Source of the DNA: Escherichia coli
GTDB taxonomy: Bacteria > Pseudomonadota > Gammaproteobacteria > Enterobacterales > Enterobacteriaceae
Direction: 5' to 3' (one strand)
Assembly: GCF_044647545.1 (NCBI RefSeq)
Contig: NZ_CP172818.1
DNA length: 64,000 nt
A program made the position numbers and the translations under genes. Below, piece after piece: positions 1,130 through 17,923 of the stretch. Within the stretch, counting starts at the first letter, position 1. Each line of letters begins with the position of its first letter. The notes below the pieces were generated by a model. The model had not been told where the DNA came from and made no database searches. It saw nothing but the letters and a program-made list of their open reading frames with translations.

Positions 1130-3319
1130 TCAATGTCGTCTAATACCGAGCGCGCGCCTGATAAACATCTGATCAACGTACCCAATCGATCTACTCCAAA
1201 TGTCCTGAGTATCCCGAAGATACTGGCTCAACTCATCCACATCAGCCTCGTCGGAAAATTCCAGCAAGTCTACCAGTCGGTGTAACGTCTGAATGGGAAT
1301 GCCAATCTCTTCTAAGGCATTGACACCTGGTGGTAGATGGAAACTTTCGAACGCCAATTTGACATGTGTGTAATCGACTTTGCTGCGTATACCACGCTTT
1401 ACAGCGTGGTGTTTAACTACATCCTCCATCAAGCTGAGCACCTTAGGTAGGGTATAGCCGAAGGTATTGGTTATGAGCTTCAAATCATTGTTGAGGGCAA
1501 TGGAAAGAGTACGTTTCTCCCCTTCAGAAATCCACTGTCGTGCATAATCGATCTGATTTTTCAGATATTCCGAATAACTTTCAGCACTTAAATAGCCGGC
1601 AAGTTTTGCGATCATGACATCCGTAGGCTTAACAGGGACCCCATTGCGACTGAACGTATGGGGAACCAGTCTGGCAATGATCTTTGCAAAGGTCTTGAGG
1701 AAGTTTGTCGCGGGAGTCCAGTGAAACACTAACGAGGAAAATTCGTTATCGTCCATCATCTCGAACATGCTTTGCAGCATTTCGAACTGCTCGACACGGA
1801 AGTACGAATGCTTCTTCACAAGGTCGATGGAAACACGGTCGTTTATGAAAACCTCATCAAAGCGATCCTGTGAAAACTCGGACAAGTGGTCTGGTTGAAC
1901 GCTGGCTAACAGGTTGATTGGGGTATCAATGCCCTGAATACCGAGCGGAATATCCACCTCTTGATTGAGATTGTCTTCCGGGATTTCCTCCAGGCAAAAG
2001 ATTTTGCCGACGAAGTGAACGCCCATGCGCCCGGCGCGACCTTTGATGTTCCCATGGGTGAATTTGTCAATGCTGCGAGTTCCATCGCGGTTGTCGTAGA
2101 TCACAACGTTCTTAGCGATAGTGTTGACTCCTTCAATGATCGTGGAGGTGCAGAGCAAAAAGCGCAGTTTTCCAGCATTGAATTGGTCGGCAGTGTATTG
2201 CTGCAGTGCCCTCGGTAGCGCGCCAAAATGCAAGCCAATACCGTTTCTAAGGGCGACTGTGTAATCCCAGTCGGCATCGAACTCTTCGCTGACCCAGTCG
2301 ACATGGGGATTCTCAGTCGGAGTGCCATGCCCAAGCCTGATCAGCTCGCGCGCCACCAGGCCCGCAACAGTTGGTGACTTGCAATAAATGATCGTTGCGT
2401 CGACACATGCGTGCGCGATTTCCCCCAGCGCTTTGAGCTTGGCTTTGTCGTCATTCGCTTTGATGCCGAACGTCTTAACATCTAGCGCGACTGTATTGAA
2501 GTCGGTAGAAACGAAAGTATGCGGATATCCAAGTTTTTCGAGACCGCGAATGCTGTTAACGAACGGTCCCGTCAGGTAAAACTGCCTGGAGACCTTAAGC
2601 AGTTTGCTTAACGCAATGTTGAGCTCGATGACTCGTTCGTCTTGATGATCAATGTCCCCGCTTTTCAGTTGTCGGAACGCCAACTTGTAAAACTCGTCAA
2701 TGACGAAGAGGTCAATGTCGACGATGTCGTCACGCTCGTTCACTCGCTCCTGAGTTAACACATAAACAGCCTGATCGGAATGGCACACTTGGGAACTGTG
2801 GTGGATGATCTGATATCGGTCACCGAATCGCTCTTGCAGTCGGCGACGGGTTTCGTCGGCAAGAGCCACGGTTGGAACAACCAGAACAAGCCGTTTCAAA
2901 GTTCCCATGCCGAGCAATGAATCGACGATTGCACTTTTGCCCATGCTTGTAGGTGCACTCAGCACCACGTTTTGACCAGACTTGAGCAGATCGAATATGT
3001 GGAACTGCATTGAGTGGAAAACATAACCATCCGAGAATGGCGTCCGGTATAGCTCAAGCACCCTCAGGTCATCCGGTGTCAGGCTGGTGAACTCCTTTTT
3101 GAGATACGGGAACAAACCTGATTTTCTCACCATATTTTTCAAAATTGTGGTGTGCTCGGAAAACCGCTCGCGCGAATCGAGAGCTCGCACGATCAAGTCC
3201 CGTCCCAAGTCATACGAAACAGGGTTAGACAACAGCTTGTTAACCGCAAACAGATAATTGAACGATGAGAAGTCCTCACCCTGCAGGCTATGTTTCGCCT
3301 GTTCATAGATCTCTGTCAT
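1130..3319 (-). CDS. yfjK: SF2 DEAD/DEAH-box helicase, 729 aa (probable AbpB)
   Basis: 729-aa ORF; Walker A APTSMGKS, DExx-like VIDEF, helicase C-terminal motifs TSTIIEGVN and GRAGRMG visible in the translation; overlaps upstream yfjL by 4 bp. Confidence 0.85.
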   Translation of the reverse strand: MTEIYEQAKHSLQGEDFSSFNYLFAVNKLLSNPVSYDLGRDLIVRALDSRERFSEHTTILKNMVRKSGLFPYLKKEFTSLTPDDLRVLELYRTPFSDGYVFHSMQFHIFDLLKSGQNVVLSAPTSMGKSAIVDSLLGMGTLKRLVLVVPTVALADETRRRLQERFGDRYQIIHHSSQVCHSDQAVYVLTQERVNERDDIVDIDLFVIDEFYKLAFRQLKSGDIDHQDERVIELNIALSKLLKVSRQFYLTGPFVNSIRGLEKLGYPHTFVSTDFNTVALDVKTFGIKANDDKAKLKALGEIAHACVDATIIYCKSPTVAGLVARELIRLGHGTPTENPHVDWVSEEFDADWDYTVALRNGIGLHFGALPRALQQYTADQFNAGKLRFLLCTSTIIEGVNTIAKNVVIYDNRDGTRSIDKFTHGNIKGRAGRMGVHFVGKIFCLEEIPEDNLNQEVDIPLGIQGIDTPINLLASVQPDHLSEFSQDRFDEVFINDRVSIDLVKKHSYFRVEQFEMLQSMFEMMDDNEFSSLVFHWTPATNFLKTFAKIIARLVPHTFSRNGVPVKPTDVMIAKLAGYLSAESYSEYLKNQIDYARQWISEGEKRTLSIALNNDLKLITNTFGYTLPKVLSLMEDVVKHHAVKRGIRSKVDYTHVKLAFESFHLPPGVNALEEIGIPIQTLHRLVDLLEFSDEADVDELSQYLRDTQDIWSRSIGYVDQMFIRRALGIRRH

Positions 3320-4932
3320 ACGACCTCTCTCACCTTCTCATCAACTAATTGGGTTAACCGCTCAAGACTCGGGGCTGGATAAATGAATACGTGGATGCAA
3401 AGATTCGCAAACGGCGAATCCTCGATGAGGTCAGCCGCGAATTTTTCGAACAGCACCGCTGTTTCTTTCTCCAGGTCATCCTCGAACCCCGGCGTTTCAG
3501 GCTCGGTTAGTAGATTAGAGTCGTAGCCCACGAACAGAACAAACGTGAAACGATCGAGGTGAGCATCGAAAGGTTGGCTGCCATCAAGAATTTCGTCAAT
3601 GTCGTGGCGAAGCAGGTAGTTATCGTCTTTAATGTCGAGGATTTTTTTGCGCGCGGTATCGATGCAATCCGAAATGTCCTCGTACAACTGATCCCGTATC
3701 TCCGGCAATCTGACGGCAATGTTAATATCAGTCACCAACTCGCTGAAGCCAATCCAAAGCTGATCACCTTCTGGATCGCGGCGAACGATATGCACGTTTT
3801 CAAGAATTTTTTCGGCCCCTGCTTTTTCCACGTATAGCATGCAAGGAATAGGCTGGCTTTCGTGGTGCTGCCGGATCGTTGCGTGCAACAGCACTCGACC
3901 CAAAAATTCGCTGACGTCATGGAGCGATTTGAAGACGGAATTCTTTAGTCGTTCTCGCTTTTCAATGAATGTCAGTTTATGAATATCAGACATTTCTTTT
4001 GGTCGGAGAAAAACCTCATCCAACCATTGACAGACGTTATCCGCGATGTGCTTGTAGCGGTATTTCTTAAGTGAGTACTGCTGATGTAGAACCTGGCCTT
4101 TACGCTTAGCGCAGACCGAAGCCATAGGCGCTCTAAATGGCGTAAGGATGTGGGGTAAGTCCCGTTTGACGTAGATTTTGCGGCCTGACCGAGATTGGTC
4201 ATCTTCGACACGCTGCTTGAACCACTCAAGTAGGTCTGGTCGTAAGTAGGACTTGTCATCAGCACTGTGAATGCGTCGAGAATGCTCGCCCTTGCGCGTC
4301 ACAGTATCAAGGATGCGGCACCAAATGTCTTCGGCGACGGTTTCGGAACTGAGAATGACCCCATGTAGATCTTGGGAGGCCAGCCGTATGTTCTTGATCC
4401 CTAGAAGTTCCAGTTCGCGCAGGGATGAAAACACTTCCCATGTAGCCGCATCGATCCAATCTGAAACGCTTATACCTGAGTCTGTTAAAAAATTGTCTGT
4501 GCGTTTGTTGAGGTCATCGATGAGTTCCTGTCGACCTGGCTTATCTAGTCGGGCGTTTGGGCTGATCGTCAAGTACTCAAGGGTTTTGTTGACCTTTTCC
4601 TCTGTGACGATGGAGTACCTACGTCCAAGGGACAGGTCAGACTCACACTGCATTGATTTGTGCAAAATTGAACTGCAGGGGATCGTCTTTTTATCAGCAC
4701 CTTTTGAATTCTGAACGATGTCCGAAATGTTCCAACGTGTTTTGCCGGTGCTTTTTACCTGAACGAAGTCGATGTATCCATCAGATACAATGTCGATATC
4801 GTCTGTGACCTCGCAGCGCACACTGCGGATAGTCTTGTCACGAAGCATTCGGGTGACATGGTAAGCGGCTACGCAGTCCTGAAATAAGAAACCGTGCTTG
4901 GCGGCTACTCCGCCTGAATCGTTCGACTCCAT
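3316..4932 (-). CDS. yfjL: Helicase-partner protein, 538 aa (probable AbpA)
   Basis: 538-aa ORF whose stop overlaps the yfjK start (3316-3319), indicating translational coupling; length and sequence match my recollection of YfjL. Confidence 0.8.
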   Translation of the reverse strand: MESNDSGGVAAKHGFLFQDCVAAYHVTRMLRDKTIRSVRCEVTDDIDIVSDGYIDFVQVKSTGKTRWNISDIVQNSKGADKKTIPCSSILHKSMQCESDLSLGRRYSIVTEEKVNKTLEYLTISPNARLDKPGRQELIDDLNKRTDNFLTDSGISVSDWIDAATWEVFSSLRELELLGIKNIRLASQDLHGVILSSETVAEDIWCRILDTVTRKGEHSRRIHSADDKSYLRPDLLEWFKQRVEDDQSRSGRKIYVKRDLPHILTPFRAPMASVCAKRKGQVLHQQYSLKKYRYKHIADNVCQWLDEVFLRPKEMSDIHKLTFIEKRERLKNSVFKSLHDVSEFLGRVLLHATIRQHHESQPIPCMLYVEKAGAEKILENVHIVRRDPEGDQLWIGFSELVTDINIAVRLPEIRDQLYEDISDCIDTARKKILDIKDDNYLLRHDIDEILDGSQPFDAHLDRFTFVLFVGYDSNLLTEPETPGFEDDLEKETAVLFEKFAADLIEDSPFANLCIHVFIYPAPSLERLTQLVDEKVREVV

Positions 4933-5190
4933 TTAGACATCCGTGACAATTTTGCGAAAATTAAGGAGATGTTATGACACAGTCCAATCGGATCACTGCA
5001 TCATCACCAGTGATCTAAATACTTCACAGCCATTCTCGGTCGCAGGTATCAAGCTTTTCAGGATTCCACAAATATTGTAACCCTGACGTCTAATTTGGTT
5101 ATATAACATACTGCCCCAACTAACGTAAGGTAGGCACAGCCTTAATCAAGGTTTTGGTTTTCAAATAGTTCAGAGCTGAGACCGCCAACC

Positions 5191-5238
5191 GCACTATGGC
5201 ACTATGGCACTATGGCACTATGGCACTATGGCACTATG
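5191..5238. repeat. Tandem repeat (GCACTATG) x6
   Basis: Six perfect head-to-tail copies of an 8-bp unit read directly, between yfjM and the yfjL upstream region. Confidence 0.95.
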
Positions 5239-5291
5239 GCACCGCCAGCGATTGTAATCACACTTGATATTATAAAACACAGTTGCACGCA

Positions 5292-5555
5292 TTATTTCCT
5301 GGTTGGTAGGGTCATATCTCGATGCTCTTTGAGCAATGTCAACATCGCGTGTTCATGGCTTTCTATATTGTTGATGCCTTGCCCATCCGGACCCCACTCC
5401 TTATAGCTCATCATGATGGCTTGTTTTGGGCTCTCTGCTCGTTCTGTTTCGACGTAGAATTTTTTCTTGTCTGCTGGCGAATAATTACTAAGTATCGAGT
5501 TGCTGCTTGGTGAGATCAGGAAGAGGTTACCGAAACGATGGACATCATCCCCCAT
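5292..5555 (-). CDS. yfjM: Small prophage protein, 87 aa
   Basis: 87-aa ORF in the expected position between yfjL and rnlA; length matches YfjM; coding status not independently supported. Confidence 0.5.
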
Positions 5556-5696
5556 TTTGTGGACTGCCCCCCCGGTAGACGATCCTGCCCTATAGTTGGA
5601 GTGCCCCCTATTCAGGTGGCTAAATTTAGCAAATCAATACACTTCAGGGGGGTATTATTGTAGAGTTTCCCCATATGTTTCTATGGGATCCAGGAA

Positions 5697-6770
5697 ATGA
5701 CAATCAGGAGTTACAAAAACTTAAATCTGGTCAGGGCAAATATCGAGACTGAATCCAGACAATTCATTGAAAATAAAAACTATTCAATCCAATCAATTGG
5801 TCCTATGCCAGGGTCAAGGGCTGGGCTTCGGGTCGTATTTACCAGACCAGGGGTTAACTTGGCAACTGTGGACATTTTTTATAACGGGGACGGTTCGACT
5901 ACAATTCAATATCTCACTGGAGCCAATCGTTCTCTGGGCCAAGAGTTAGCGGATCATCTTTTTGAAACCATCAATCCTGCTGAATTTGAGCAGGTAAATA
6001 TGGTACTGCAAGGATTTGTAGAGACAAGCGTTCTACCTGTACTTGAGCTATCAGCAGATGAATCGCATATAGAGTTCAGAGAACACTCTCGTAACGCTCA
6101 TACCGTAGTGTGGAAAATTATTTCCACCAGCTATCAGGACGAATTGACTGTGAGCCTGCATATCACAACAGGTAAGCTCCAGATTCAGGGCCGACCGCTG
6201 TCATGTTACAGAGTTTTCACGTTTAACTTGGCAGCCCTGCTTGATTTACAGGGTTTGGAGAAAGTGCTAATCCGCCAGGAGGATGGTAAAGCTAATATTG
6301 TTCAACAGGAGGTTGCCCGCACTTACTTGCAGACTGTAATGGCCGATGCTTACCCGCATCTCCACGTGACTGCCGAAAAATTGCTCGTTTCAGGGCTATG
6401 TGTTAAACTCGCCGCCCCTGATTTGCCTGACTACTGTATGTTACTTTATCCTGAACTACGCACCATTGAAGGTGTCTTAAAAAGTAAGATGAGTGGGTTA
6501 GGCATGCCAGTACAGCAGCCGGCAGGTTTTGGAACTTACTTTGATAAACCTGCTGCTCATTACATTCTGAAACCGCAATTTGCAGCTACTCTTAGACCGG
6601 AACAGATTAACATCATCAGCACAGCCTATACTTTTTTTAATGTGGAACGTCATTCTCTGTTCCACATGGAAACTGTGGTCGATGCCAGCCGTATGATTTC
6701 TGATATGGCCCGGTTGATGGGTAAAGCCACTAGAGCGTGGGGAATAATCAAGGACTTATATATTGTTTGA
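5697..6770 (+). CDS. rnlA: RnlA toxin (RNase LS), 357 aa
   Basis: 357-aa ORF recognised as RnlA; followed by an overlapping small antitoxin gene. Confidence 0.9.
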   Translation: MTIRSYKNLNLVRANIETESRQFIENKNYSIQSIGPMPGSRAGLRVVFTRPGVNLATVDIFYNGDGSTTIQYLTGANRSLGQELADHLFETINPAEFEQVNMVLQGFVETSVLPVLELSADESHIEFREHSRNAHTVVWKIISTSYQDELTVSLHITTGKLQIQGRPLSCYRVFTFNLAALLDLQGLEKVLIRQEDGKANIVQQEVARTYLQTVMADAYPHLHVTAEKLLVSGLCVKLAAPDLPDYCMLLYPELRTIEGVLKSKMSGLGMPVQQPAGFGTYFDKPAAHYILKPQFAATLRPEQINIISTAYTFFNVERHSLFHMETVVDASRMISDMARLMGKATRAWGIIKDLYIV

Positions 6771-7134
6771 AATCACCGGAATTAACGTCTCAGGGGCTCT
6801 AAAAGCTGTCGTTATGGCGACCGGCTTCGAGAACCCTTTGTCCTCAGTTAATGAAATTGAGACGAAACTTTCTGCCCTACTGGGTAGTGAGACCACTGGT
6901 GAAATCCTTTTTGACCTCTTGTGCGCTAACGGTCCAGAGTGGAACCGCTTCGTTACGCTGGAAATGAAATATGGCCGGATCATGCTGGATACGGCCAAAA
7001 TTATTGATGAGCAGGACGTTCCGACACATATCCTGAGCAAACTGACTTTTACTTTACGTAATCATCCTGAGTACCTAGAAGCCTCTGTTTTGTCTCCCGA
7101 TGATGTACGCCAAGTCCTGTCAATGGATTTTTGA
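6763..7134 (+). CDS. rnlB: RnlB antitoxin, 123 aa
   Basis: 123-aa ORF overlapping the rnlA 3' end by 8 bp, the typical type II toxin-antitoxin arrangement. Confidence 0.85.
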   Translation: MFEITGINVSGALKAVVMATGFENPLSSVNEIETKLSALLGSETTGEILFDLLCANGPEWNRFVTLEMKYGRIMLDTAKIIDEQDVPTHILSKLTFTLRNHPEYLEASVLSPDDVRQVLSMDF

Positions 7135-7435
7135 AACTCTTCTTTCTAAACGAACCAGTATAGAATTCGCCCTTTTGGCATGATATTAACTTGTCCAATA
7201 TGATCAAATAGCATTAACCCCCCCTCACAACGTCCTGCATAGGGAACACGTTTTCCCCTGTGCACCCACGACTAAATTTCCCCCCCTTTAAACTTCTCAA
7301 TAATGTCACCAATTTTCTGGAAATCCTATGATGCCTTTCCCGGTAAATGGTGCTGTGAGTTCAGAAAGATTCTGCAATCTATGTGCATTGAAAAAATCTT
7401 CAGATAGATATCATTCTCCTGAACAATCCGATGAA

Positions 7436-7470
7436 CGGCAGAACCTCGCGGTTCTGCCGTTTTTGTTTTA
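7436..7470 (+). terminator. Terminator-like hairpin in the yfjP leader
   Basis: CGGCAGAAC...GTTCTGCCG stem followed by TTTTTGTTTTA, about 20 nt upstream of the yfjP RBS; a diverged copy recurs at 15269-15300. Confidence 0.5.
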
Positions 7471-7488
7471 CTTTTCAGAGGAGTGGTG

Positions 7489-8352
7489 ATGAAAAATTTT
7501 GAAGTTCTGCAGCCACTACAGAACTCCCTTTCCGGTCTACCGCTATGGGTATCTGAACGTATATTGCAGCAGATAAATCAGTTAACCCACTACGAGCCAG
7601 TGATCGGCATCATGGGTAAAACTGGGGCGGGAAAGAGTAGCCTTTGCAATGCCCTGTTTGCCGGTGAAGTATCGCCGGTCAGCGATGTAGCGGCCTGTAC
7701 ACGTGATCCTTTACGCTTTCGCCTGCAGATTGGAGAACACTTTATGACCATCGTGGATCTGCCCGGCGTGGGCGAAAGTGGCGTTCGCGATACCGAGTAT
7801 GCTGCGCTGTACCGCGAACAACTTCCCCGGCTCGACCTGATTCTGTGGCTGATTAAGGCTGATGATCGGGCACTGGCGACTGATGAGCATTTTTACCGTC
7901 AGGTGATTGGCGAAGCATACCGGCATAAGATGCTGTTTGTTATCAGCCAGTCAGACAAAGCTGAACCCACCAGCGGTGGAAATATCCTTTCCACAGAGCA
8001 GAAACAAAATATCAGCCGCAAAATCTGCCTGCTGCATGAGCTATTCCAGCCCGTGCATCCGGTGTGTGCCGTGTCGGTTCGCCTGCAGTGGGGACTAAGG
8101 GTGATGGCAGAGCGGATGATTAAGTGTCTGCCGCGTGAGGCCAGCAGCCCGGTAGTAGCGCTACTGCAACATCCCTTTCGAACAACGGTAGCCCGGGAGC
8201 AGGCACGTGACGATTTCGGTGAAACCGTAGGTGCCATACTCGATACGGTAAGCACCTTTCCCCTTATTCCCGCCCCGGTGCGGACCATTATTCAGGCCGT
8301 GCGTTCCTCGGTGGTGTCAGTGGCCCGCGCTGTCTGGGATTTCTTCTTCTGA
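7489..8352 (+). CDS. yfjP: Prophage GTPase, 287 aa
   Basis: G1/Walker A GKTGAGKSS and G3 DLPGVG motifs; ATG at 7489 preceded by GAGGAG (the listed ORF begins 6 nt earlier at an in-frame GTG). Confidence 0.85.
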   Translation: MKNFEVLQPLQNSLSGLPLWVSERILQQINQLTHYEPVIGIMGKTGAGKSSLCNALFAGEVSPVSDVAACTRDPLRFRLQIGEHFMTIVDLPGVGESGVRDTEYAALYREQLPRLDLILWLIKADDRALATDEHFYRQVIGEAYRHKMLFVISQSDKAEPTSGGNILSTEQKQNISRKICLLHELFQPVHPVCAVSVRLQWGLRVMAERMIKCLPREASSPVVALLQHPFRTTVAREQARDDFGETVGAILDTVSTFPLIPAPVRTIIQAVRSSVVSVARAVWDFFF

Positions 8353-8443
8353 GTGTTTAATTCTGCCCTATTATTCTCCGAGCCCTGTCGCAAGTGCGGC
8401 AGGGCTTTCTTTATTTGTTTTACCCATACTGAGGAGTCTGCTT

Positions 8444-9263
8444 ATGACCCGTCTGGCTTCGCGCTTTGGCGCTGCAAACCAGATACGCCGTGACCGTCCG
8501 CTGACACATGAAGAACTGATACGCCATGTACCCAGTATTTTTGGGGAAGACCGGCACATCCCGCAGTGAACGGTATGCGTACATTCCCACCATTACCGTC
8601 CTGGAAAATCTGCAGCGGGAAGGCTTTCAGCCGTTCTTCGCCTGCCAGACCCGTGTGCGCGACCCGGGCCGCCGGGGATACACAAAACACATGCTGCGTC
8701 TGCGGCGGGCCGGAGAGATAAACGGAGAACATGTCCCTGAAATTATTCTGCTCAACTCTCATGACGGTACCTCCAGCTACCAGATGCTGCCGGGTTACTT
8801 CAGGTTCGTCTGCCAGAACGGGTGCGTCTGTGGCCAGTCTCTGGGGGAAGTGCGTGTTCCACACCGGGGAAATGTAGTGGAGAAAGTTATCGAAGGGGCT
8901 TACGAGGTGGTGGGCGTGTTTGACCGGATAGAGGAGAAGCGTGATGCCATGCAGTCGCTGGTCCTGCCGCCACCGGCACGCCAGGCGCTGGCACAGGCGG
9001 CACTGACTTACCGTTATGGTGACGAACATCAGCCCGTCACCACCGCCGACATTCTGACGCCGCGACGCCGGGAGGATTACGGTAAGGACCTGTGGAGCGC
9101 ATATCAGACCATCCAGGAGAATATGCTGAAAGGCGGGATTTCCGGTCGCAGTGCCAGAGGAAAACGTATCCATACCCGGGCCATTCACAGCATTGATACC
9201 GACATTAAGCTCAATCGCGCATTGTGGGTGATGGCAGAAACACTGCTCACGCAACTGCAGTAG
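8444..9263 (+). pseudogene. yfjQ: DUF932-family protein, frameshifted near codon 41
   Basis: ATG at 8444 with GAGGAG RBS encodes MTRLASRFGAAN... for 41 codons, then TGA at 8567-8569; the remaining 245 aa continues in the +1 frame; total span 820 nt is not a multiple of 3. Confidence 0.65.
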
Positions 9264-9479
9264 ACGTTTCATGTTGCCACGTTGTTAATATCGGACACCA
9301 CCTGTCCGCATCGCTATGTGCTCGTGTGCCTCAATCCCCCGGTTATAGCTTTTAACCCCCGTTACATCTGGCTTTTGCAGAAATAAAAAATAGTTTCTGC
9401 GTTGTCCATACCCTGTCCGCCCCCCTCTTTAAAGTAATCACATCATTTTCAGTCAGTTAACTTTCCTGGAGAATCTCTC

Positions 9480-10181
9480 ATGACACAGGCAGAACGCCGC
9501 CATGACCGGCTGGCTGTCAGGCTGTCACTGATAATCAGCCGTCTGGTTGCGGGTGAAACGTTGAGCGTGCGCAAACTGGCGGCTGAGTTTGGCGTGTCAG
9601 TGCGCACGCTGCGGCGTGATTTTCGTGAACGACTGATGTATCTGGACCTGGAGTATCAGTCCGGATACTGCCGCTTACGCACTGCTGGCAGTGAGATGCA
9701 GATGGTGCCCGACGTGCTTATCTTTGCCCACCGCAGCGGGCTGGCCGGGCTTTTTCCCGGCCTTGACCGCCGTCTGGTGAATGCACTGCTGATGTGCGAT
9801 GAGTCTCCCTGCGTGATAGCACCAGCCAATCCGGTTCCTTCGCCTTCAGGAGCATTGTCTTTCTGGAGACTGATTCAGGCCATTACCGGGCGCAGGCGGG
9901 TGACGCTGATTGCAGAGGGGCGACGCTGTGAGCGCCTAGCTCCCTGCCGGTTACTCATCCACCAGCAGACCTGGTATCTGGTGGCTGAACACGAAGGGCA
10001 TATCGCCGTATTCACACTTGATGAAATCCATCTGATTCAGCCTTTGCAGGAGACTTTTCGCCGCAATGACAGTCTGTGTCGCCTGGTTGAAGACCCGGTC
10101 TTCATTCAGGCCTTACCCCATTTTCGCTTTATCCAGCATTCACTGCTTACGTTTGTTCCGGCCGACAGCCCACCGGAATAG
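9480..10181 (+). CDS. yfjR: HTH plus WYL-domain transcriptional regulator, 233 aa
   Basis: N-terminal HTH-like segment ([21 protein letters not shown]) and a WYL motif ([11 protein letters not shown]) visible in the translation. Confidence 0.85.
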
Positions 10182-10221
10182 CGCAGGCGTTGTTATCAAC
10201 CCGGCAACATGGAGGAGCCCA

Positions 10222-10458
10222 GTGCCCGTTATTGCCATTATCGCCATTGTTATCATCGTCATCATTCTGAACAAAACCGGAGTGTCCGACAGCCTCACGG
10301 CCCTGACACTTGCAACCGTTGCCGCACTACTGACGGGAGGTGGTGCAGCCGGTGCTGCCAGTGTCGCGCTGACGCCGTTCGTCGGCGTGCCGGTGGGTAT
10401 TTTTGTGGGAATTTATGTCTTTGCCAAAGTGGTTCGTCTGATTTCAGGGAAAAAATAA
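10222..10458 (+). CDS. ypjK: Small hydrophobic membrane protein, about 78 aa
   Basis: GTG start at 10222 preceded by GGAGGA; two hydrophobic segments; stop overlaps the yfjS start (TAATG). Confidence 0.55.
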   Translation: MPVIAIIAIVIIVIILNKTGVSDSLTALTLATVAALLTGGGAAGAASVALTPFVGVPVGIFVGIYVFAKVVRLISGKK

Positions 10459-10901
10459 TGAAACGTAAAACACTACCTCTGCTGGCGCTGGTTGCCACCT
10501 CTCTGTTTCTGAGCGCCTGCGATGACAGGAGTGATGACCTCAAAGCTATCAGTAAATTTAAGGACCTCACGCCCCCGCGCTTCAGCGATGTGGTCAGCCG
10601 TCAGGATGATGTCAGCGAAGAATGGTCACAGGTTGGCTTCTCATCCGGTCTCACCCTGCAGGTCTTACGTACCCGTGAGTCGCCCGATGGTTGCGAGGGT
10701 GGCAGTTACTACTATCTGGTAGATATGGAGGAGAAAACCGTCCAGCCGCTGATGAATGCGCTTTGTATTGCCGACAATATCAAACTGGAATACCACGAAG
10801 TTACGGACCCGTATACGAAAGAAAAATACTTCGAATATTCCCATGACGGCAAACTGATGGGACGGCTGCTGATACCGTCAAACCCTGATAACCGGGAATA
10901 A
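10458..10901 (+). CDS. yfjS: Lipoprotein, 147 aa
   Basis: Signal peptide with lipobox LSAC; ATG at 10458; the longer listed ORF from 10209 is an upstream extension in the same frame. Confidence 0.8.
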   Translation: MKRKTLPLLALVATSLFLSACDDRSDDLKAISKFKDLTPPRFSDVVSRQDDVSEEWSQVGFSSGLTLQVLRTRESPDGCEGGSYYYLVDMEEKTVQPLMNALCIADNIKLEYHEVTDPYTKEKYFEYSHDGKLMGRLLIPSNPDNRE

Positions 10902-10924
10902 AAACAACGAGAAAGGAGACATAA

Positions 10925-11392
10925 ATGAAAATACGTTCACTAAGCCGGTTTGTACTGGCAAGTACAATGTTCGCCAGCTTTACAGCCTCTGCGGTCCCCG
11001 GACTCTGGCAACAGGGGTACGGTCAGGGCAATGCGGAATACAGTGTGACGGATGCCAGCGGAAAGATGTTTACCATCAACTGCACGGGAAATCCGGACCA
11101 GAACGGTATTTACCAGCACTCGGTTTTTCTGATCCTCGCCGGGGATAAAACGGTCAGCTCGCATGATGACAGTACCGGCATCACAGTGGTGATGGACCAT
11201 AAGCAATATGCCATTCCCTCAACCCTTGGCTGGCGTAACGGAGATAATGCCTGGTTCAGCTTCATCATGGATATCCGTAAGGCCCGGCAGTTCGACGTCT
11301 ACGTCAATGACCAGAAAGTTGGATCGTTTAACCCTGATGTTCGGAATGCACAAAAGGTCCTGCCAACATTAGCGGACTGCACTAACGACTGA
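10925..11392 (+). CDS. yfjT: Secreted/periplasmic protein, 155 aa
   Basis: Intact ORF with N-terminal signal peptide; RBS GGAGA upstream. Confidence 0.8.
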   Translation: MKIRSLSRFVLASTMFASFTASAVPGLWQQGYGQGNAEYSVTDASGKMFTINCTGNPDQNGIYQHSVFLILAGDKTVSSHDDSTGITVVMDHKQYAIPSTLGWRNGDNAWFSFIMDIRKARQFDVYVNDQKVGSFNPDVRNAQKVLPTLADCTND

Positions 11393-11787
11393 CGGCTGCG
11401 CCTTCCCTACCATAACAACCCTGATTGCCTCCGGCGGTCGGGGGTTTCTTTTTTCTCCTTAATCTCCAGAGGTAGGCCACGTACTTTCGAACGATGAGCG
11501 CAGTGGTCAGTTTTTTTCAGATATATTTATCTTTTTTTGGCTGTAAGCTCCGCTGTGAGCGCAGGCTGTGTGAAAACTCCTGATCACTTCTTGGTCTAAG
11601 CGATGGTTTCATATGATCAACCATTCTTGATAAACCCATGCGACGAACTGACTTTTTCATTAAAATTAGAAATATACGAATGAATACTGCGGATACCGAC
11701 ATGGCCAATCACATTCAAGGACAAGGCAGGCACCAGGTGACATTACTCCCTGATGCACTGGATGATTTTGTCACTGAAGATAACTTA

Positions 11788-11931
11788 AGTAAGTTTAATC
11801 AGTTCATCACGGGTCGGTGGCATATCGAGATAATTAATTATTGTCGGTTCGTTGCCGTTGTTATGAAGCATCTCCAGCGTGTTGCGTGAGGTGCCACAGG
11901 CCGGGTTGTGATAGATGGTAATGTTGCTCAT
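11788..11931 (-). pseudogene. Arsenate reductase ArsC N-terminal fragment (47 codons)
   Basis: Reverse-strand translation MSNITIYHNPACGTSRNTLEM... matches the ArsC N-terminus and then hits a premature stop. Confidence 0.7.
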
Positions 11932-11943
11932 ATCAGTATCTAA

Positions 11944-12935
11944 TTACAAAGTGACAGAGAGCCGCCACGCCAGCGCGGCCAGAGTGACAAACAGCACCGG
12001 CACAGTCATGACAATGCCGGTACGGAAGTAATATCCCCAAGTGATTGTCATATTTTTCTGGGCAAGCACATGCAGCCACAGCAGAGTTGCCAGACTGCCA
12101 ATCGGGGTGATTTTCGGGCCTAAATCACAGCCAATCACATTGGCATAAATCATTGCCTCTTTGACGACGCCAGTCGCCGTACTCCCGTCAATCGACAGCG
12201 CACCAATCAGCACCGTCGGCATATTGTTCATCACTGATGAGAGAAATGCCGTCAAGAAGCCGGTGCCGAACGTCGCTGCCCATAACCCCTTGTCTGCCAG
12301 CAGATTCAGCACGCCAGACAGGTACTCCGTGAACCCTGCATTGCGCAGGCCATAGACCACGATGTACATGCCCAGTGAGAAAATAACGATCTGCCATGGC
12401 GCACCGCGCAGGACTTTTCCGGTGTTGATCGAATGACCTCTTTTCGCCACCACAAACAGCACTGCTGCGCCAGCGGCCGCTATCGCACTGACCAGGATTC
12501 CCTGCGGCTCCAGAAAGAAGAAACCGACAAGCAGCAATAACAGGACAATCCAGCCCGCCCTGAAGGTTGCCAGATCCTTGATCGCACTGGCAGGCGTCTT
12601 CAGCAGCGAAACTTAATACGTTGCCGGAATAACTCTGCGAAAGAAGAGATACAGCATAATCAGCGTGGCCGCAATCGCTGCCGCATCCACGGAGATCATA
12701 ACGGAGGCGTACTGCGCAAAGCTCAGACCGAAGAAGTCCGCCGAGACGATATTCACCAGGTTAGAAACAATGAGCGGCAGGCTGGCCGTATCTGCAATAA
12801 ATCCTGCAGCCATGACAAAGGCCAGTGTCGTGCCCTGGCTGAACCCAGTGCGATCAGCATCGCAATCACAATCGGCGTCAGGATCAGCGCGGCGCCGTCA
12901 TTGGCAAACAACGCATCAACAGCGGCACCGAGCAA
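11944..12935 (-). pseudogene. Arsenite efflux pump ArsB, N-terminally truncated and frameshifted
   Basis: Three reverse-strand ORF fragments (197, 66 and 60 aa) in different frames, all ArsB-like membrane sequence; the N-terminal roughly 100 aa is missing where AT-rich DNA begins. Confidence 0.8.
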
Positions 12936-13094
12936 GACTTTCCAGGTGAACAGCGCTCTAGGTAGGAACTTTGTCGTTGATAGAGTCTTCAGCCATCAAC
13001 ACTGTATCGAGTAATGAAATTGGTTGCTAGAAAGTCGATGATTTGTTGCGTATGATTAAAAATCAACCTTAAAGGCTTTATACATGGATTTGCT

Positions 13095-14798
13095 ATGGCT
13101 TTTGTATCAGAAAGAGAAATTGTAAGAAAGATATTTAGCAAAAAAATTGACTTTACGATCTTGGCATTTTTCTATATTTCCTCTATTTTTTTTCTTCTTT
13201 GTAGTGGCGTTCTCTTTCAATATTTTACCGCTGCCTTCACAAAAGGTAATTGTTATGAATGCTCAATGAAACTTGATTACATAAAACAATTTTATTTTTC
13301 ACTGGAAACCGCATGGTACCTCATATCTGCTGTTGCAGTATTTATTGCATCTGTTTTTATACAGCATAGAATTAAAGCTTATTTAACATTATTAGCTATT
13401 ACATGGATTGTACTAACAATAACAGATGTGGCGTTAATACACGCCTTAGACAATATAGCCATGAATAATATTTTGTTAAATATACTATATAATCTTTTTG
13501 GGGCGATTTTATTGTCACTGTTTATGTGTTTATCAAATTCCCTCCTTTTCCACCTTAATAAGATAAAACATATTCCAATGATTTTATCGGCAATGATTCC
13601 ATTAGTTTCCGCAATAATAATAGCCATACTCATAACCGCTGTTATATATTTATTGTTTGCCCGGCAGGCGGTAGAGATTGAGATGGATATATCTGAAGGT
13701 TCAGACATCGCATATGTAGGTGTAAAAGATAATGAGGAATCATTTGGGTTTTTAAATGATAAAAAAACAGACACACCAACGTATCTGGATGTAATCAAAA
13801 ATGGTAGTTTGATATATAATGATACACAGGGTTTAAGTGGTGCTGATATTTATATTGTCTCCGGTTGTTATGCCCTTCCAGATTTACTTCGCAATGTACC
13901 GCTTGATGCTAAAAAATCTTTTCTGAATGTAAAAAAGCTAGAAATCACACAGAAACTTCCAATGATGGGGTTCATACAAGGTGAATCCGCTGATGTGATG
14001 CCTAAAGCAGCATCCAGGTTAAGTTTGAGCAAGCAAGATGATAAATTTATGCTAGCCTCAAGTGTTACTGACTCTCAAATAAAATTTAAATCAAACAATG
14101 CACAATTGATGGTTGCTTTCGCATTTATGCCAATAACAACGAATGGTATTTTACATGATTATACATACGATATAATAATAAATGATAAAAAATATAAAAT
14201 TGAAAATCATGTTGCACCTCTATCTAGGCTTGATAAAAATAAGAAGATGAAGTGTGAATACCAGCAAATATCGGATTTAACAAATACGTATAACATTAAT
14301 GCAAATTACTTAACGGGTTTTTTACTTGTCCTAAAACCAGATGATATTATTAATTACAACAATAGCCCTTCCGTACTACTCAAGACTGATTTTGCGTTCT
14401 ATAAAAAAACATACCAGAAGCTTGATAAAATATATGATGACATAAGCAATGGAAAATTATCTTCACTGAGAGCAACAGGTATCTCCCAGTTTAGTATCAA
14501 CGGGAAACATTTGTCGTTAAGGCCAGAATCGGAGATTATTATTTCTGAAGGGAGTTTGTATGGACTAGTTAATAAAAGCAAAAAAATCAAAATATATGGC
14601 ACAGCAGATCTTGTTTTTGTTGATAACAAGATAATGAACCTTCGTAAAATAACTTATTTGCAATCTAAGCTAGAAATTTTTGGTTCTTCTATTATGGATA
14701 TATTAAAGTATATATTTGGTTTAGGTCTGCTAGCAATTTCTATAAAATTCATTCATTCTTACTTTAAGAATGATGTGAATGAAAATTTATTCTTGTAA
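13095..14798 (+). CDS. yfjW: AT-rich inner-membrane protein, 567 aa, function unknown
   Basis: 567-aa ORF; strongly hydrophobic N-terminal about 190 aa followed by a hydrophilic Asn/Lys-rich domain; very low GC. Confidence 0.75.
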   Translation: MAFVSEREIVRKIFSKKIDFTILAFFYISSIFFLLCSGVLFQYFTAAFTKGNCYECSMKLDYIKQFYFSLETAWYLISAVAVFIASVFIQHRIKAYLTLLAITWIVLTITDVALIHALDNIAMNNILLNILYNLFGAILLSLFMCLSNSLLFHLNKIKHIPMILSAMIPLVSAIIIAILITAVIYLLFARQAVEIEMDISEGSDIAYVGVKDNEESFGFLNDKKTDTPTYLDVIKNGSLIYNDTQGLSGADIYIVSGCYALPDLLRNVPLDAKKSFLNVKKLEITQKLPMMGFIQGESADVMPKAASRLSLSKQDDKFMLASSVTDSQIKFKSNNAQLMVAFAFMPITTNGILHDYTYDIIINDKKYKIENHVAPLSRLDKNKKMKCEYQQISDLTNTYNINANYLTGFLLVLKPDDIINYNNSPSVLLKTDFAFYKKTYQKLDKIYDDISNGKLSSLRATGISQFSINGKHLSLRPESEIIISEGSLYGLVNKSKKIKIYGTADLVFVDNKIMNLRKITYLQSKLEIFGSSIMDILKYIFGLGLLAISIKFIHSYFKNDVNENLFL

Positions 14799-15268
14799 CG
14801 CATTTGGCTCCAATTGGAGCCTTTTTATGACTATTTATTAAAATATCCTAAGTTAAGCCTGTTTTTAAAGCAGGCTTGAGCGTGAAGCGGACACTCATAC
14901 CTGCTTTAAAGTGGCGTTTTTGTCGTTACCCATACCTATATTTTCTGTTGTTTAACTGCCAGAACTGAGCGGTTGAAAAGCCAGAAATATGCCGAGCCAG
15001 CGGCATGGAAGCGCCAGCAGCTGTTGAATGGAGTACTGTAGGCAAATGGTGCCGTAACCGGCTTTCGTACTGAAAGGTTCTGTCTATCCCATCCCTTCTC
15101 TTGTATCTAACATTTAGTTGTGAATAGCTACTGTAAATGCCCCTACAAAATGAACCATTATTTTTAGAGGGCGTCTGGCACTCCAACTTCCGCTTTTGGC
15201 ACAGAACGGCCTATCAGCAATATAAAAGCATTCAGATATATATCATTTCTACAAACATACCCGATTAA

Positions 15269-15300
15269 CGGCAGAATCTCAGGATTCTGCCGCTTTTTTA
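15269..15300 (+). terminator. Terminator-like hairpin, second copy of the yfjP-type leader
   Basis: CGGCAGAATC...GATTCTGCCG stem plus T-run; flanks align with 7399-7492. Confidence 0.45.
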
Positions 15301-15321
15301 TTATTTTTCAGGGGAGTAGTA

Positions 15322-15695
15322 ATGAGCAACTCTGAAGGTTGGTAGTCATTTTAGCAAACGCTTTCTGGTCTGCCGCAGTGGGCATCGGCTGATTGCGTAG
15401 CAGGGCCACTGGTATCTGCCGGTATCACCGACATTAACATTGAAGACGACCAGGGCATTCACGTCCGCCTGATAGTTCGTGATGCCGAAGGTCGGATGGT
15501 TGGCGGGCATGGAACTTTGAACCGGACGCCGGTGAAGGTTTTAACCGCTATATCCACAGGTCAGGCATCCGCACCGACACCTTCCCCCGCTGACTCCGAA
15601 TCATTTACCAGCAACATTTCACCTTCCCAAACGCGCTTTATTACCTCATACGCCAGCCATCGCCGCTGGCGTTTTTTATTCACGGAGACATACCC
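15322..15695 (+). pseudogene. Degenerate remnant beginning with a yfjP-like N-terminus
   Basis: ATG after the duplicated leader gives MSNSEGW then stop; downstream frames retain ...QTLSGLPQW..., resembling YfjP residues 12-20, but no intact ORF. Confidence 0.4.
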
Positions 15696-16154
15696 ATGAC
15701 AACACAGACACAGTACGACCTCGTACCCGCTAACGGATCCGAATTTGAGTTGAGCGTAACGCAGGTACCCGATGAACAGCATATCCGCTTCTGGCCGCAG
15801 CACTTTGGCACCATCCCGCAGTGGATAACGCTGGAACCGCGCATTTTCGCCTGGATGGACCGCTTCTGTGATGAGTACTGCGGGGGTATCTGGTCCTTTT
15901 ACACGCTCAGCAATGGCGGAGCGTTTATGGCTCCTGATGCTGACGGTGACGATAAATGGCATTTGCTCAACGGCATGAATGGCAATGGTGCGGAAATGAG
16001 CGCGGAAGCCGCAGGTATCGCTGTCTGCCTGATTGAATATAGCCATCACGCCTGCCTCACCGAATGCGATGCCATGACGGAGCACTATTACCGCCTGCGG
16101 GATTACGCTCTGCAGCACCCTGAATCCAGCGCCATTATGCGCATTATTGATTAA
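15696..16154 (+). CDS. yfjX: Antirestriction protein (ArdB/KlcA-like), 152 aa
   Basis: 152-aa ORF recognised as YfjX-family antirestriction protein. Confidence 0.85.
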   Translation: MTTQTQYDLVPANGSEFELSVTQVPDEQHIRFWPQHFGTIPQWITLEPRIFAWMDRFCDEYCGGIWSFYTLSNGGAFMAPDADGDDKWHLLNGMNGNGAEMSAEAAGIAVCLIEYSHHACLTECDAMTEHYYRLRDYALQHPESSAIMRIID

Positions 16155-16162
16155 GGATACTC

Positions 16163-16645
16163 ATGATGGAACAGTCACTCATCCCACAGACACCGGTACT
16201 TCCACTGACCGCACAACGCACGGTAAAACGCGCCTTAACGCTGCTTGACCGACACCTGCGCGAAACAGGCGTGGCATTCACCTCCACTCAGGCTGCTCGT
16301 GACTGGCTGAAGCTGAAAATGGCGGGGCTGGAGCGTGAAGAATTTATGATGCTGTATCTGAACCAGCAGAACCAGTTGATTGCCCACGAAACCCTGTTTG
16401 CCGGTTCTATTAGCAGTACCGAGGTACATCCCCGTGAGGTGGTCAAACGCGCCCTGTATTTCAATGCAGCAGCAGTGATACTGGCGCATAACCACCCCTC
16501 CGGCGACACTACTCCCAGCCAGGCAGATAAGACTATAACGCAGCGTCTGGTGCAGGCGCTTCAGCTCGTTGATATCCGTGTCCCTGACCATCTGATTGTT
16601 GGTGGCAGGCAAATCTATTCGTTCGCAGAACACGGTCTGCTTTGA
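16163..16645 (+). CDS. yfjY: RadC-like JAB-domain protein, 160 aa
   Basis: JAB/MPN metal-binding motif HNHPSGD visible in the translation. Confidence 0.85.
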   Translation: MMEQSLIPQTPVLPLTAQRTVKRALTLLDRHLRETGVAFTSTQAARDWLKLKMAGLEREEFMMLYLNQQNQLIAHETLFAGSISSTEVHPREVVKRALYFNAAAVILAHNHPSGDTTPSQADKTITQRLVQALQLVDIRVPDHLIVGGRQIYSFAEHGLL

Positions 16646-16854
16646 GGTATTACATGAGAATTATCAGTAAACGCCGGGCAATGACGATATACCGCCAGCA
16701 TCCTGAGTCCCGAATCTTTCGCTACTGCACCGGAAAATATCAGTGGCACGGTAGCGTCTGTCATTACACCGGCAGGGATGTTCCGGATATCACAGGAGTC
16801 CTGGCTGTGTACGCCGAACGCCGCAGGACCGCAGCGGACCGTATGCTTGACTGA
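16642..16854 (+). CDS. ypjJ: DUF987 small protein
   Basis: Small ORF overlapping the yfjY stop by 4 bp; conserved position ahead of the toxin-antitoxin pair; exact start uncertain. Confidence 0.65.
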   Translation: MRYYMRIISKRRAMTIYRQHPESRIFRYCTGKYQWHGSVCHYTGRDVPDITGVLAVYAERRRTAADRMLD

Positions 16855-16891
16855 TGAGTATCACCCTGAACTGACAATAAAGAGGTTATGA

Positions 16892-17209
16892 ATGAGCAAC
16901 ACCACATGGGGCCTGCAGCGAGATATCACGCCGCGCCTGGGAGCACGTCTGGTGCAGGAGGGCAACCAGCTGCACTATCTGGCTGACCGGGCCAGTATCA
17001 CCGGTAAGTTTAGTGACGCCGAATGTCCTAAGCTGGATGTGGTATTTCCACATTTTATCAGCCAGATAGAGTCGATGCTGACCACTGGTGAACTGAATCC
17101 CCGCCATGCCCAATGCGTCACCCTGTACCACAACGGTTTTACCTGCGAAGCCGATACTCTTGGTAGTTGCGGCTACGTATACATCGCTGTTTACCCCACT
17201 CAACGCTAA
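16892..17209 (+). CDS. yfjZ: CbeA-family type IV antitoxin, 105 aa
   Basis: 105-aa ORF recognised as YfjZ/CbeA family; immediately upstream of the cognate toxin. Confidence 0.85.
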
Positions 17210-17229
17210 CTAATTTCACGAGAGCAAGC

Positions 17230-17559
17230 ATGAACACTCTACCTGCTACAATTTCGCAGGCGGCGAAGCCCTGCCTGTCGCCAGTGGCTGTCTGGCAAAT
17301 GCTACTGACACGCCTGCTGGAACAACACTATGGCCTGACACTGAACGACACGCCGTTCAGTGATGAAACTGTTATTAAGGAACATATCGATGCTGGTATC
17401 ACTCTGGCCGATGCAGTCAATTTTCTGGTGGAAAAGTACGAACTGGTACGTATCGATCACAGAGGATTTTCGTGGCAACAACAGTCTCCATATATTTCCG
17501 TAGTAGATATTCTGCGAGCAAGGCGCTCTACCGGCTTGCTAAAAACTAATGTGAAATAA
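17230..17559 (+). CDS. ypjF: CbtA-family type IV toxin, 109 aa
   Basis: ATG at 17230 ([10 protein letters not shown]...); the listed ORF has an N-terminal extension. Confidence 0.85.
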
Positions 17560-17923
17560 ACGCTTAAATACAGAGCAGACTGAAGGAAAGCAAAATGCTA
17601 ATCTCATAGACGAAGAGACTCCCGCTGTAACCTCCCCTCCCCCGAAAAAACCTGACATTTTCTTTTAGGACCAACAATGGGACCAAAATGAAAATTGAAC
17701 TGAAGATTACAATCAATTTAACAACAAGTTACACAACCAATTCAACTCCCGCCAGCTCCACCAATCATGATTGGACGGTGTAAGGACAACACCAATAAAA
17801 ACAGGAAGTTAGCAGTCTCAGCAGGACACCGACCAGACGGTGAGGAGACAAAAAAGGATACGCAAAGGAGCCGCGGCCCCTGGTGATATGAAAGCCCACA
17901 GATGTGGGCTTTTTCGTTGATGG

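Follow-up and report, generated by a model that had tools for sequence, protein, structure and literature searches.

Integrative islands of the CP4-44/CP4-6/CP4-57 type and tRNA-linked pathogenicity islands (PAIs) carry a recurrent set of gene families, namely YeeP/YkfA/YfjP, YafZ/YfjQ, KlcA/YfjX, YeeS/RadC, YeeT and YeeU-YeeV, and the same backbone has been reported on the Shigella SRL PAI, the PAIs of uropathogenic Escherichia coli (UPEC) 536 and islands of E. coli that produces Shiga toxin (STEC) (PMC6980539, PMC6174562). The locus analyzed here, comprising yfjP, yfjQ, yfjR, ypjK, yfjS and yfjT, occupies positions 7436-11392 of a 64,000-nucleotide stretch of E. coli DNA (assembly GCF_044647545.1, contig NZ_CP172818.1), the whole of which is referred to as the window. 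It shows the same families, orientation and order as the CP4-type backbone and differs from it in having the less common yfjR-ypjK-yfjS-yfjT cassette, a dead mosaic DUF932 gene (yfjQ), and an arm that breaks off after yfjT, beyond which lies a second, truncated arm. The initial annotation of this DNA regarded the six genes as a candidate for one undescribed accessory system; they are instead likely to be a stretch of the conserved, co-oriented right-arm backbone of a CP4-57/CP4-6/CP4-44-type integrative island of Enterobacterales, made of three separable units: yfjP behind a leader with a terminator, yfjQ, and the yfjR operon. The locus and its paralogues are already known and annotated, and the backbone has been noted before on many islands; the present analysis adds the separable units, the link of yfjQ to yubP, the dead mosaic state of yfjQ, the conservation and duplication of the leader, the composite right side, and the pattern of YfjR followed by exchangeable envelope genes.

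The leading region of F-like plasmids, with yubP (DUF932), DUF905, an ArdB/KlcA-type antirestriction gene, ssb and psiB, is the other described system that the arm resembles. Both are co-oriented, and tblastn searches against positions 46-68 kb of F recovered homologues of DUF932 (66% identity) and, from outside the interval, of DUF905 (55%) and the antirestriction gene (32%), while YfjP, YfjR, YpjK, YfjS and YfjT found no homologue in that region. The gene yubP, whose product is approximately 66% identical to the YfjQ family, adjoins oriT on F. The island lacks the ssb, psiB, ParB-like and hok genes, whereas the F leading region lacks the GTPase, the WYL regulator, the envelope cassette and the CbtA/CbeA pair. 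By analogy with a plasmid leading region, the arm as a whole would probably serve the establishment and maintenance of the island after transfer.

The first 20,995 positions of the window correspond to the cryptic prophage CP4-57, aligning end to end with the copy in K-12 MG1655 at 98.3% identity and with strain BS-04 at 99.2%. Outside conversion tracts the identity to K-12 is approximately 99%, and the mismatches are concentrated in yfjQ; further clusters of mismatches to K-12 occur at 17500-20995, 3' of ypjF, and reach the ypjA region. All six open reading frames (ORFs) named in the initial annotation are present on the plus strand where it placed them, in agreement with the RefSeq annotation of K-12 CP4-57, and the gene identities that it gave for yfjP to yfjT are correct. 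Its description of the genes as tightly packed applies to yfjR-ypjK-yfjS-yfjT, with gaps of 40, -1 and 23 nt (the ypjK/yfjS overlap being the single base common to both genes in TAATG), but fails for yfjP-yfjQ, which are 91 nt apart with a strong terminator hairpin in between, and for yfjQ-yfjR, which are separated by 216 nt. The flanks were also correctly described, with rnlA-rnlB upstream and an arsenic-transporter pseudogene and a glutaredoxin-domain pseudogene downstream. The statement that the module has no demonstrated function still applies to its genes, five of the six remaining on the list of y-ome genes (PMC11551758).

The intact layout of the right arm, as seen in WG5, UPEC_U013 and many genera, consists of the GTPase, DUF932, yfjR, ypjK, yfjS, yfjT, DUF905, antirestriction, RadC/JAB, DUF987, CbeA and CbtA genes, all co-oriented. 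It was established by a synteny scan in which a tblastn panel was run on 50 loci, together with the annotation of K-12 and five other islands, and the window contains the order typical of CP4-type islands and PAIs, running co-oriented from the GTPase and DUF932 to the antirestriction, RadC/JAB, DUF987, CbeA and CbtA genes. The left-arm genes alpA, yfjI and yfjJ lie upstream in K-12, pNDM-CIT and two further loci (L020 and L021), the associated P4-type integrase itself lying outside the stretches that were read. In intact relatives, the antirestriction gene that follows DUF905 is of the ArdB/KlcA type. In the window, an ars remnant and yfjW break the arm after yfjT, and a complete second leader followed by a short GTPase stump appears at 15223, a structure that recurs in L019, L020 and L024. 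The right side of CP4-57 is therefore a scarred composite of two right arms, the second of which is truncated and starts at 15223, and the boundary after yfjT is a truncation or insertion scar rather than the end of a functional unit. Additionally, in one locus (L053, from 2217 onwards) the N-terminus of the GTPase is fused in frame to the C-terminus of DUF932, a deletion derivative indicating that the arm is prone to internal deletions.

The distribution of the genes does not follow that of a single unit. Of the 5,426 complete E. coli genomes, about 4,900 contain the genes for the GTPase and DUF932 (DUF932 in 4,917, or approximately 90%, with a median of three copies per genome), whereas yfjR is present in 535 and ypjK-yfjS-yfjT in 529 (at least 80% of the query covered in both cases), so that the yfjR cassette occurs in about 10% of genomes and the whole 5-kb interval in only 376. 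Approximately 360 of the genomes with yfjR and ypjK-yfjS-yfjT match at 99% identity or more, and those sampled are nearly all laboratory lines of K-12. DUF932 is moreover found without the other genes of the block on thousands of conjugative plasmids. Gene order is not fixed either: in the O103:H2 island and at least nine further loci of the genome scan, the GTPase is followed by a yfjR-like gene, envelope genes and then DUF932, which thus stands after the cassette and not before it. Synonymous divergence (dS) is unequal between neighboring genes of the same locus pair, as in L022, where it amounts to 0.06 for yfjR, 1.38 for yfjP and 1.23 for yfjT, and such discordance points to mosaic recombination inside the block. 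The K-12 island CP4-6 holds ykfA, ypjK, yafY and ykfB with no room for an intact yfjR. Nevertheless, each of the six genes is under strong purifying selection, with ratios of nonsynonymous to synonymous divergence (dN/dS) of 0.00-0.20. The expectation that the genes would keep their order and presence wherever any of them occurs is not borne out by these data.

Plasmid records that match YfjQ, the DUF932 protein, number at least 5,000; the identity is about 66%, and 87% of these plasmids are conjugative. The frameshift noticed in the initial annotation is real: a 2-bp deletion near 8558 (ATCTCC to ATCC) splits the gene into ORFs 8444-8569 and 8526-9263. Approximately 770 bp (about 8471-9247) share 99.5-100% identity with DUF932 paralogues found elsewhere in the genomes of other strains, such as SMS-3-5, compared with about 73% with yfjQ of K-12; judging from these identities, the segment is a gene-conversion tract acquired from a paralogous island copy, and the deletion falls inside it. 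The gene in the window is a dead mosaic. Strain BS-04 carries a shorter conversion tract with the same 3' end. Intact copies of yfjQ, in contrast, have a dN/dS of 0.03. The residues R73, H83, N105, D108, G109, R121, C124, N126, H141, Q225 and N258 are invariant and may represent an enzyme or metal site, and the AlphaFold2 (AF2) model has a predicted local distance difference test (pLDDT) score of 82. DUF932 homologues with 25-43% identity were also seen among L008-L011 and the phage matches, in jumbo phages of Erwinia, Yersinia, Serratia, Cronobacter and Xanthomonas; others occur in Flavobacterium, Curvibacter and Roseobacter phages, and the phage copies sit among small genes without known function.

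YfjP is a GTPase with a Pfam MMR_HSR1 match (E = 1.4e-15); its Dynamin_N matches are weak, its NCBIfam matches cover the G domain only, and its PADLOC matches to LeoBC/LeoA are likewise weak and confined to the G domain. The gene has a dN/dS of 0.11-0.20 and, unlike DUF932, was found on only 79 plasmid records. The gene lying 5' of the GTPase is not conserved across loci and therefore does not belong to the backbone. The region 2784-5177 of a 5.9-kb mobilizable plasmid of the ColE1 type (L012, NZ_CP041419.1) contains the gene of a GTPase with 40% identity to YfjP, whose neighbors are a hypothetical gene of 144 aa and a gene of the EcsC family; this is a minimal GTPase context, which might help to find partners of the GTPase.

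The leader of yfjP opens the right arm of the island and, in a profile search with nhmmer, was found directly 5' of the GTPase gene in essentially all related loci where such a gene is present. It contains a box, which reads TTCAGATAGATATCAT at 7399-7414 and is given as TTCAGAYAKATATYAT for the leader of about 100 nt that is present in two copies in the window (7391-7491 and 15223-15324); the box might bind a protein, act as a promoter element or serve as an arm for recombination. The terminator-like hairpin that the initial annotation had seen in the leader is well supported (7433-7462, -22.8 kcal/mol, z = -5.9, followed by a T-run) and is retained in relatives, with compensatory double changes in five of the eight stem pairs. 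Type-B loci, which constitute one island sub-family, have a different GC stem in the same position. An Rfam scan of 6700-11800 at the E-value threshold gave chance-level matches only (VrrA and sbrA), suggesting that the leader belongs to no known RNA family. A second hairpin of this kind occupies the yfjP-yfjQ gap and is kept, with compensatory changes, in WG5 and UPEC_U013, and a third follows yfjT, its counterpart in WG5 lying between ykfB and ykfF. Terminator-like hairpins thus precede yfjP, follow yfjP and follow yfjT, and a 216-nt gap precedes yfjR. In a scan with the sigma-70 consensus, promoter-like sites were no more frequent than in shuffled sequence. An action of E. coli AlpA as an AlpA-type antiterminator on the leader was also considered; one 'AlpA family' structure was matched, non-significantly (E = 0.56), and the idea stays speculation.

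The yfjR operon, composed of the regulator gene, its own conserved 5' region and exchangeable genes for small envelope proteins, is the one coherent sub-unit of the block. YfjR contains an HTH_DeoR domain (residues 14-50, E = 1.6e-5) and a WYL domain (residues 131-186, E = 3.2e-5) according to Pfam, and matches the generic PADLOC WYL model PDLC01457 over its full length (E = 5e-34). Among homologues that are 50-100% identical, the first 57 residues or so, which hold the helix-turn-helix (HTH) domain, are nearly invariant and the WYL half diverges, which fits a fixed operator combined with a variable sensor. The last 95 nt or so of the region 5' of yfjR are kept whichever gene precedes, including in O103:H2, where this is the GTPase and not DUF932. 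The region contains TGTCC repeats and two candidate operators, CGGACA-N5-TGTCCG (9292-9308) and TGTCC-N6-TGTCC (9402-9418). Previous work with genomic SELEX (gSELEX) classified YfjR as a single-target regulator whose target is its own operon (PMC8249747). The described regulators closest to it are the WYL proteins of the BrxR/CapW type, which have the same architecture of an N-terminal HTH and a WYL domain and likewise stand at the head of a variable gene set; YfjR also probably resembles them in autoregulating at repeats 5' of its own gene, as suggested by the gSELEX result and the conserved 5' region. It differs from them in being shorter (233 aa) and in having no sequence match to solved WYL regulators, whether the single sequence or a profile of 19 homologues was compared with the PDB, and no WCX C-terminal domain reported by Pfam; in addition, the genes that follow yfjR encode small envelope proteins and no known defence system.

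The three proteins encoded after yfjR in the window are all associated with the cell envelope. The hydrophobic segments attributed to YpjK are present and number two to three; its C-terminal part is similar to VraH (NF033835, E = 6e-6), although this match falls below the curated cut-off, and the dN/dS of its gene is 0.00-0.09. YfjS is a lipoprotein, as had been stated, with the lipobox LSAC and Asp at position +2. Under the Lol-avoidance rule, a lipoprotein with Asp at +2 is held in the inner membrane, and YfjS is accordingly predicted to be retained there. It matches phrog_5248 (E = 4e-5) and, in a PDB sequence search, no solved structure. The secretion proposed for YfjT is consistent with its signal peptide, and the protein has two conserved Cys residues. 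A tblastn search of 50,697 phage records returned no YfjT homologue, which indicates that YfjT is not a common phage moron. Hidden Markov model and structure searches suggested in the initial annotation for YfjQ, YfjS and YfjT thus yielded families (DUF932, PF06067; phrog_5248; PF27224, respectively) but no informative fold or match to a solved structure. In CP4-6, a FliA promoter inside yafY has been shown by experiment to drive ykfB (PMC4183435). The similar motif inside yfjS has the -10 element GCCGACAA, compared with GCCGATAA in yafY, a T-to-C change.

The position directly 3' of yfjR behaves as an exchangeable slot. At least seven different gene sets occupy it in 50 loci from about 40 species, and the products of almost all these genes have a signal peptide, lipobox or membrane segment. 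The occupants include YpjK/YfjS/YfjT, other YfjT-like proteins, a GYF-domain membrane protein, an Ag43-like autotransporter of 1046 aa whose gene lies immediately 3' of a yfjR homologue (L033), and a secreted protein with a Pfam Ivy (lysozyme inhibitor) domain (L048, 3620-4555, E = 1.2e-6). Judged by the Ivy domain, the envelope cargo as such does not belong to the Ivy/lysozyme-inhibitor proteins, and NCBIfam searches with nine alternative cargo proteins returned no named family. In some genera (L048, and also L045, L047 and L054), the slot is filled by a secreted protein of about 300-350 aa. A 227-aa protein of SMS-3-5 had been considered as a further Ivy-like candidate and was ruled out by Pfam. 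The interval between the GTPase and DUF932 in E. coli SMS-3-5 (L005, 3143-7508) encodes a dynamin-family protein, an RdcB-family protein and a patatin-like phospholipase, followed by two secreted proteins, and is another cargo set between these two backbone genes. The slot is comparable to that of Ag43 (flu) in CP4-44 and the SRL PAI, where a gene for a surface or envelope protein likewise lies between the GTPase and the DUF932/antirestriction genes (PMC6980539); the cargo of the window, however, comprises three small inner-membrane or periplasmic proteins with a dedicated WYL regulator and not an adhesin that is phase-variable through OxyR/Dam.

YfjR is probably autoregulatory and probably acts as a repressor of its own operon for as long as the WYL domain senses no signal. 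It would thereby control exchangeable small envelope proteins, which in the window would be YpjK in the inner membrane, YfjS as an inner-membrane lipoprotein and YfjT in the periplasm. The Ivy-like and Ag43-like alternatives point to alteration or protection of the envelope and away from cytoplasmic nucleic-acid defence, and the cassette may accordingly be viewed as regulated cargo for envelope conversion or protection. A more far-reaching and tentative possibility is that the YfjR family represents an undescribed, widespread island module of Enterobacterales, in which a WYL sensor-regulator, whose DNA-binding head is invariant and whose operator is fixed, drives interchangeable cassettes of small periplasmic or inner-membrane proteins (YpjK/YfjS/YfjT, Ivy-like or Ag43-like) that protect or convert the envelope when, for instance, DNA enters, DNA is damaged or the envelope is attacked. 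Linked to this proposal, the whole right arm might be expressed through regulated terminator read-through, given the leader box and terminator and the hairpins between genes.

Several considerations weigh against a backbone of separable units with an establishment role. The proposed role derives from three families only that have homologues in the leading region of F, and function has not been demonstrated by experiment for any of the six proteins. For YfjQ, a fold search with the AF2 model gave no convincing match and a PDB sequence search nothing meaningful; for YfjT, the PDB sequence search was equally unproductive and Foldseek against AFDB50 retrieved uncharacterized YfjT/YkfB relatives only. 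Under the conditions used, ChIP-exo (chromatin immunoprecipitation with exonuclease treatment) detected no DNA binding by YfjR (PMC8464067). The hairpins do not prove separate transcription, as read-through or antitermination is possible. Finally, one island subfamily covering about 15 genera, with members in E. coli, Citrobacter, Kluyvera, Siccibacter, Mixta, Mangrovibacter and others, keeps the six genes in strict synteny between variable cargo regions, with protein identities of 80-98%, which would also fit a functional unit.

Among the alternatives to separable backbone units, the one that fares best treats yfjR-ypjK-yfjS-yfjT alone as an inducible anti-phage or entry-exclusion cassette, in which YfjR represses the operon until infection or DNA damage and the envelope proteins then block DNA entry or kill through the membrane. 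The HTH-WYL architecture recalls the BrxR/CapW-type defence regulators, the cassette moves as a unit with its own conserved 5' region, variable downstream genes are typical of arms-race cargo, and its three products, one small and hydrophobic, one a lipoprotein of the inner membrane and one periplasmic, are of the kinds known for superinfection or entry exclusion. This explanation is nonetheless rather unlikely, considering that neither YfjR nor its homologue profile matches a solved WYL regulator, that the cargo proteins have no PADLOC match, that YfjT has no homologue in the phage records searched, and that the Ivy-like and Ag43-like occupants of the slot suggest protection of the envelope or conversion of the surface rather than phage defence; the single test found, with ykfB deleted, showed no motility phenotype (PMC4183435).

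The view of the initial annotation that all six genes form one undescribed accessory or defence system, in which the GTPase and a DUF932 effector would act with the envelope proteins under the WYL regulator, is very unlikely. In its favor are the strict synteny found in several genera, the purifying selection acting on all six genes, and the full-length PADLOC WYL match of YfjR, since WYL regulators often accompany defence systems. However, the abundance of the GTPase and DUF932 differs roughly tenfold from that of yfjR and ypjK-yfjS-yfjT, at least 5,000 plasmids carry DUF932 alone, DUF932 and the yfjR cassette change places in some islands, the genes following yfjR are exchangeable, CP4-6 retains ykfA, ypjK, yafY and ykfB with no place for an intact yfjR, and yfjQ is dead in the window while the other five genes are intact. 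The discordant dS values and the terminators between the units likewise speak against a single system, and the post-yfjT boundary is a truncation or insertion junction. When the proteins were compared with the models of known anti-phage systems in PADLOC-DB v2, the only convincing match was the generic WYL match of YfjR; YfjP gave the weak LeoBC/LeoA matches, and YfjQ, YpjK, YfjS and YfjT matched nothing. That the region is decaying cryptic-prophage DNA without current function is highly improbable, because the yfjQ pseudogene, the ars, glutaredoxin-domain and DUF905 remnants, the scarred composite right side and the classification of CP4-57 as cryptic are outweighed by a dN/dS of 0.00-0.20 across islands for all six families, five intact ORFs out of six, and the conservation of the leader, the hairpins and the yfjR 5' region across genera.

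The coordinates of the features are compiled in the table below; those of the backbone continuation follow the K-12 annotation, with coordinates shifted by -2003. The regions on both sides of the six genes are variable and contain recognized defence genes, and abpB is annotated upstream of abpA, reaching the first bases of the window. Two defence-cargo hotspots thus appear to flank the backbone, with the six genes as the conserved stretch between them.

Features of the six-gene interval, its regulatory elements and the neighboring backbone and cargo; positions refer to the window except where another island or plasmid is named
Feature	Coordinates	Strand	Description
conserved leader	7391-7491	+	about 100 nt, opens the island right arm; box, short spacer, GC hairpin and T-run, ribosome-binding site GAGGAG, yfjP ATG
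yfjP	7489-8352	+	Era/Der-like P-loop GTPase, 287 aa, YeeP/YkfA/YfjP family
yfjP-yfjQ gap hairpin	8380-8407	+	intrinsic-terminator-like; 12-bp GC stem and T-run, -23.4 kcal/mol, z = -5.5
yfjQ pseudogene	8444-9263	+	DUF932, PF06067
yfjR 5' region	9264-9479	+	last ~95 nt conserved; candidate operators
yfjR	9480-10181	+	HTH(DeoR-type)-WYL transcription regulator, 233 aa
ypjK	10222-10458	+	small hydrophobic inner-membrane protein, 78 aa; GTG start after GGAGG
yfjS	10458-10901	+	lipoprotein, 147 aa
FliA-promoter-like motif inside yfjS	10753-10777	+	2 differences from the yafY-internal FliA promoter of CP4-6
yfjT	10925-11392	+	secreted periplasmic protein, 155 aa, YfjT/YkfB family, PF27224
hairpin 3' of yfjT	11419-11443	+	terminator-like, with T-run, -18.7 kcal/mol
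second leader copy and GTPase stump	15223-15345	+	full leader 15223-15324, then 7-codon stump MSNSEGW*; hairpin -17.5 kcal/mol
backbone continuation	15433-17559	+	DUF905 remnant, yfjX/lfgA (antirestriction), yfjY/lfgB (RadC/JAB), ypjJ (DUF987), yfjZ-ypjF (CbeA/CbtA-type toxin-antitoxin pair)
window/K-12 cargo before GTPase	3316-7134		abpAB, GmrSD-domain remnant, rnlAB; after yfjT: ars remnant, yfjW
pNDM-CIT (Citrobacter plasmid; L013) cargo	3250-7593 and 12209-16861		CBASS (cyclic oligonucleotide-based anti-phage signaling system)-like set (nucleotidyltransferase, ThiF-family, Mov34/JAB, SAVED) before GTPase; Lit and TerB-domain genes after yfjT
UPEC_U013 cargo before GTPase			TIR-domain protein and helicase
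O103:H2 cargo before GTPase			Dpd

The genes of this block are among the most widespread uncharacterized genes of E. coli, and DUF932 is carried by approximately 90% of the complete genomes as well as by thousands of conjugative resistance plasmids. Regarding the six genes as backbone and not as cargo changes which experiments are worthwhile: DUF932 is best approached as a candidate for conjugation establishment, in F itself, and the yfjR operon as a small regulator with an envelope cassette, while the defence hotspots to be mined are the variable regions that flank the block. Since the right side of CP4-57 in K-12 is a composite of two arms, the phenotypes of CP4-57 deletions should be read accordingly.

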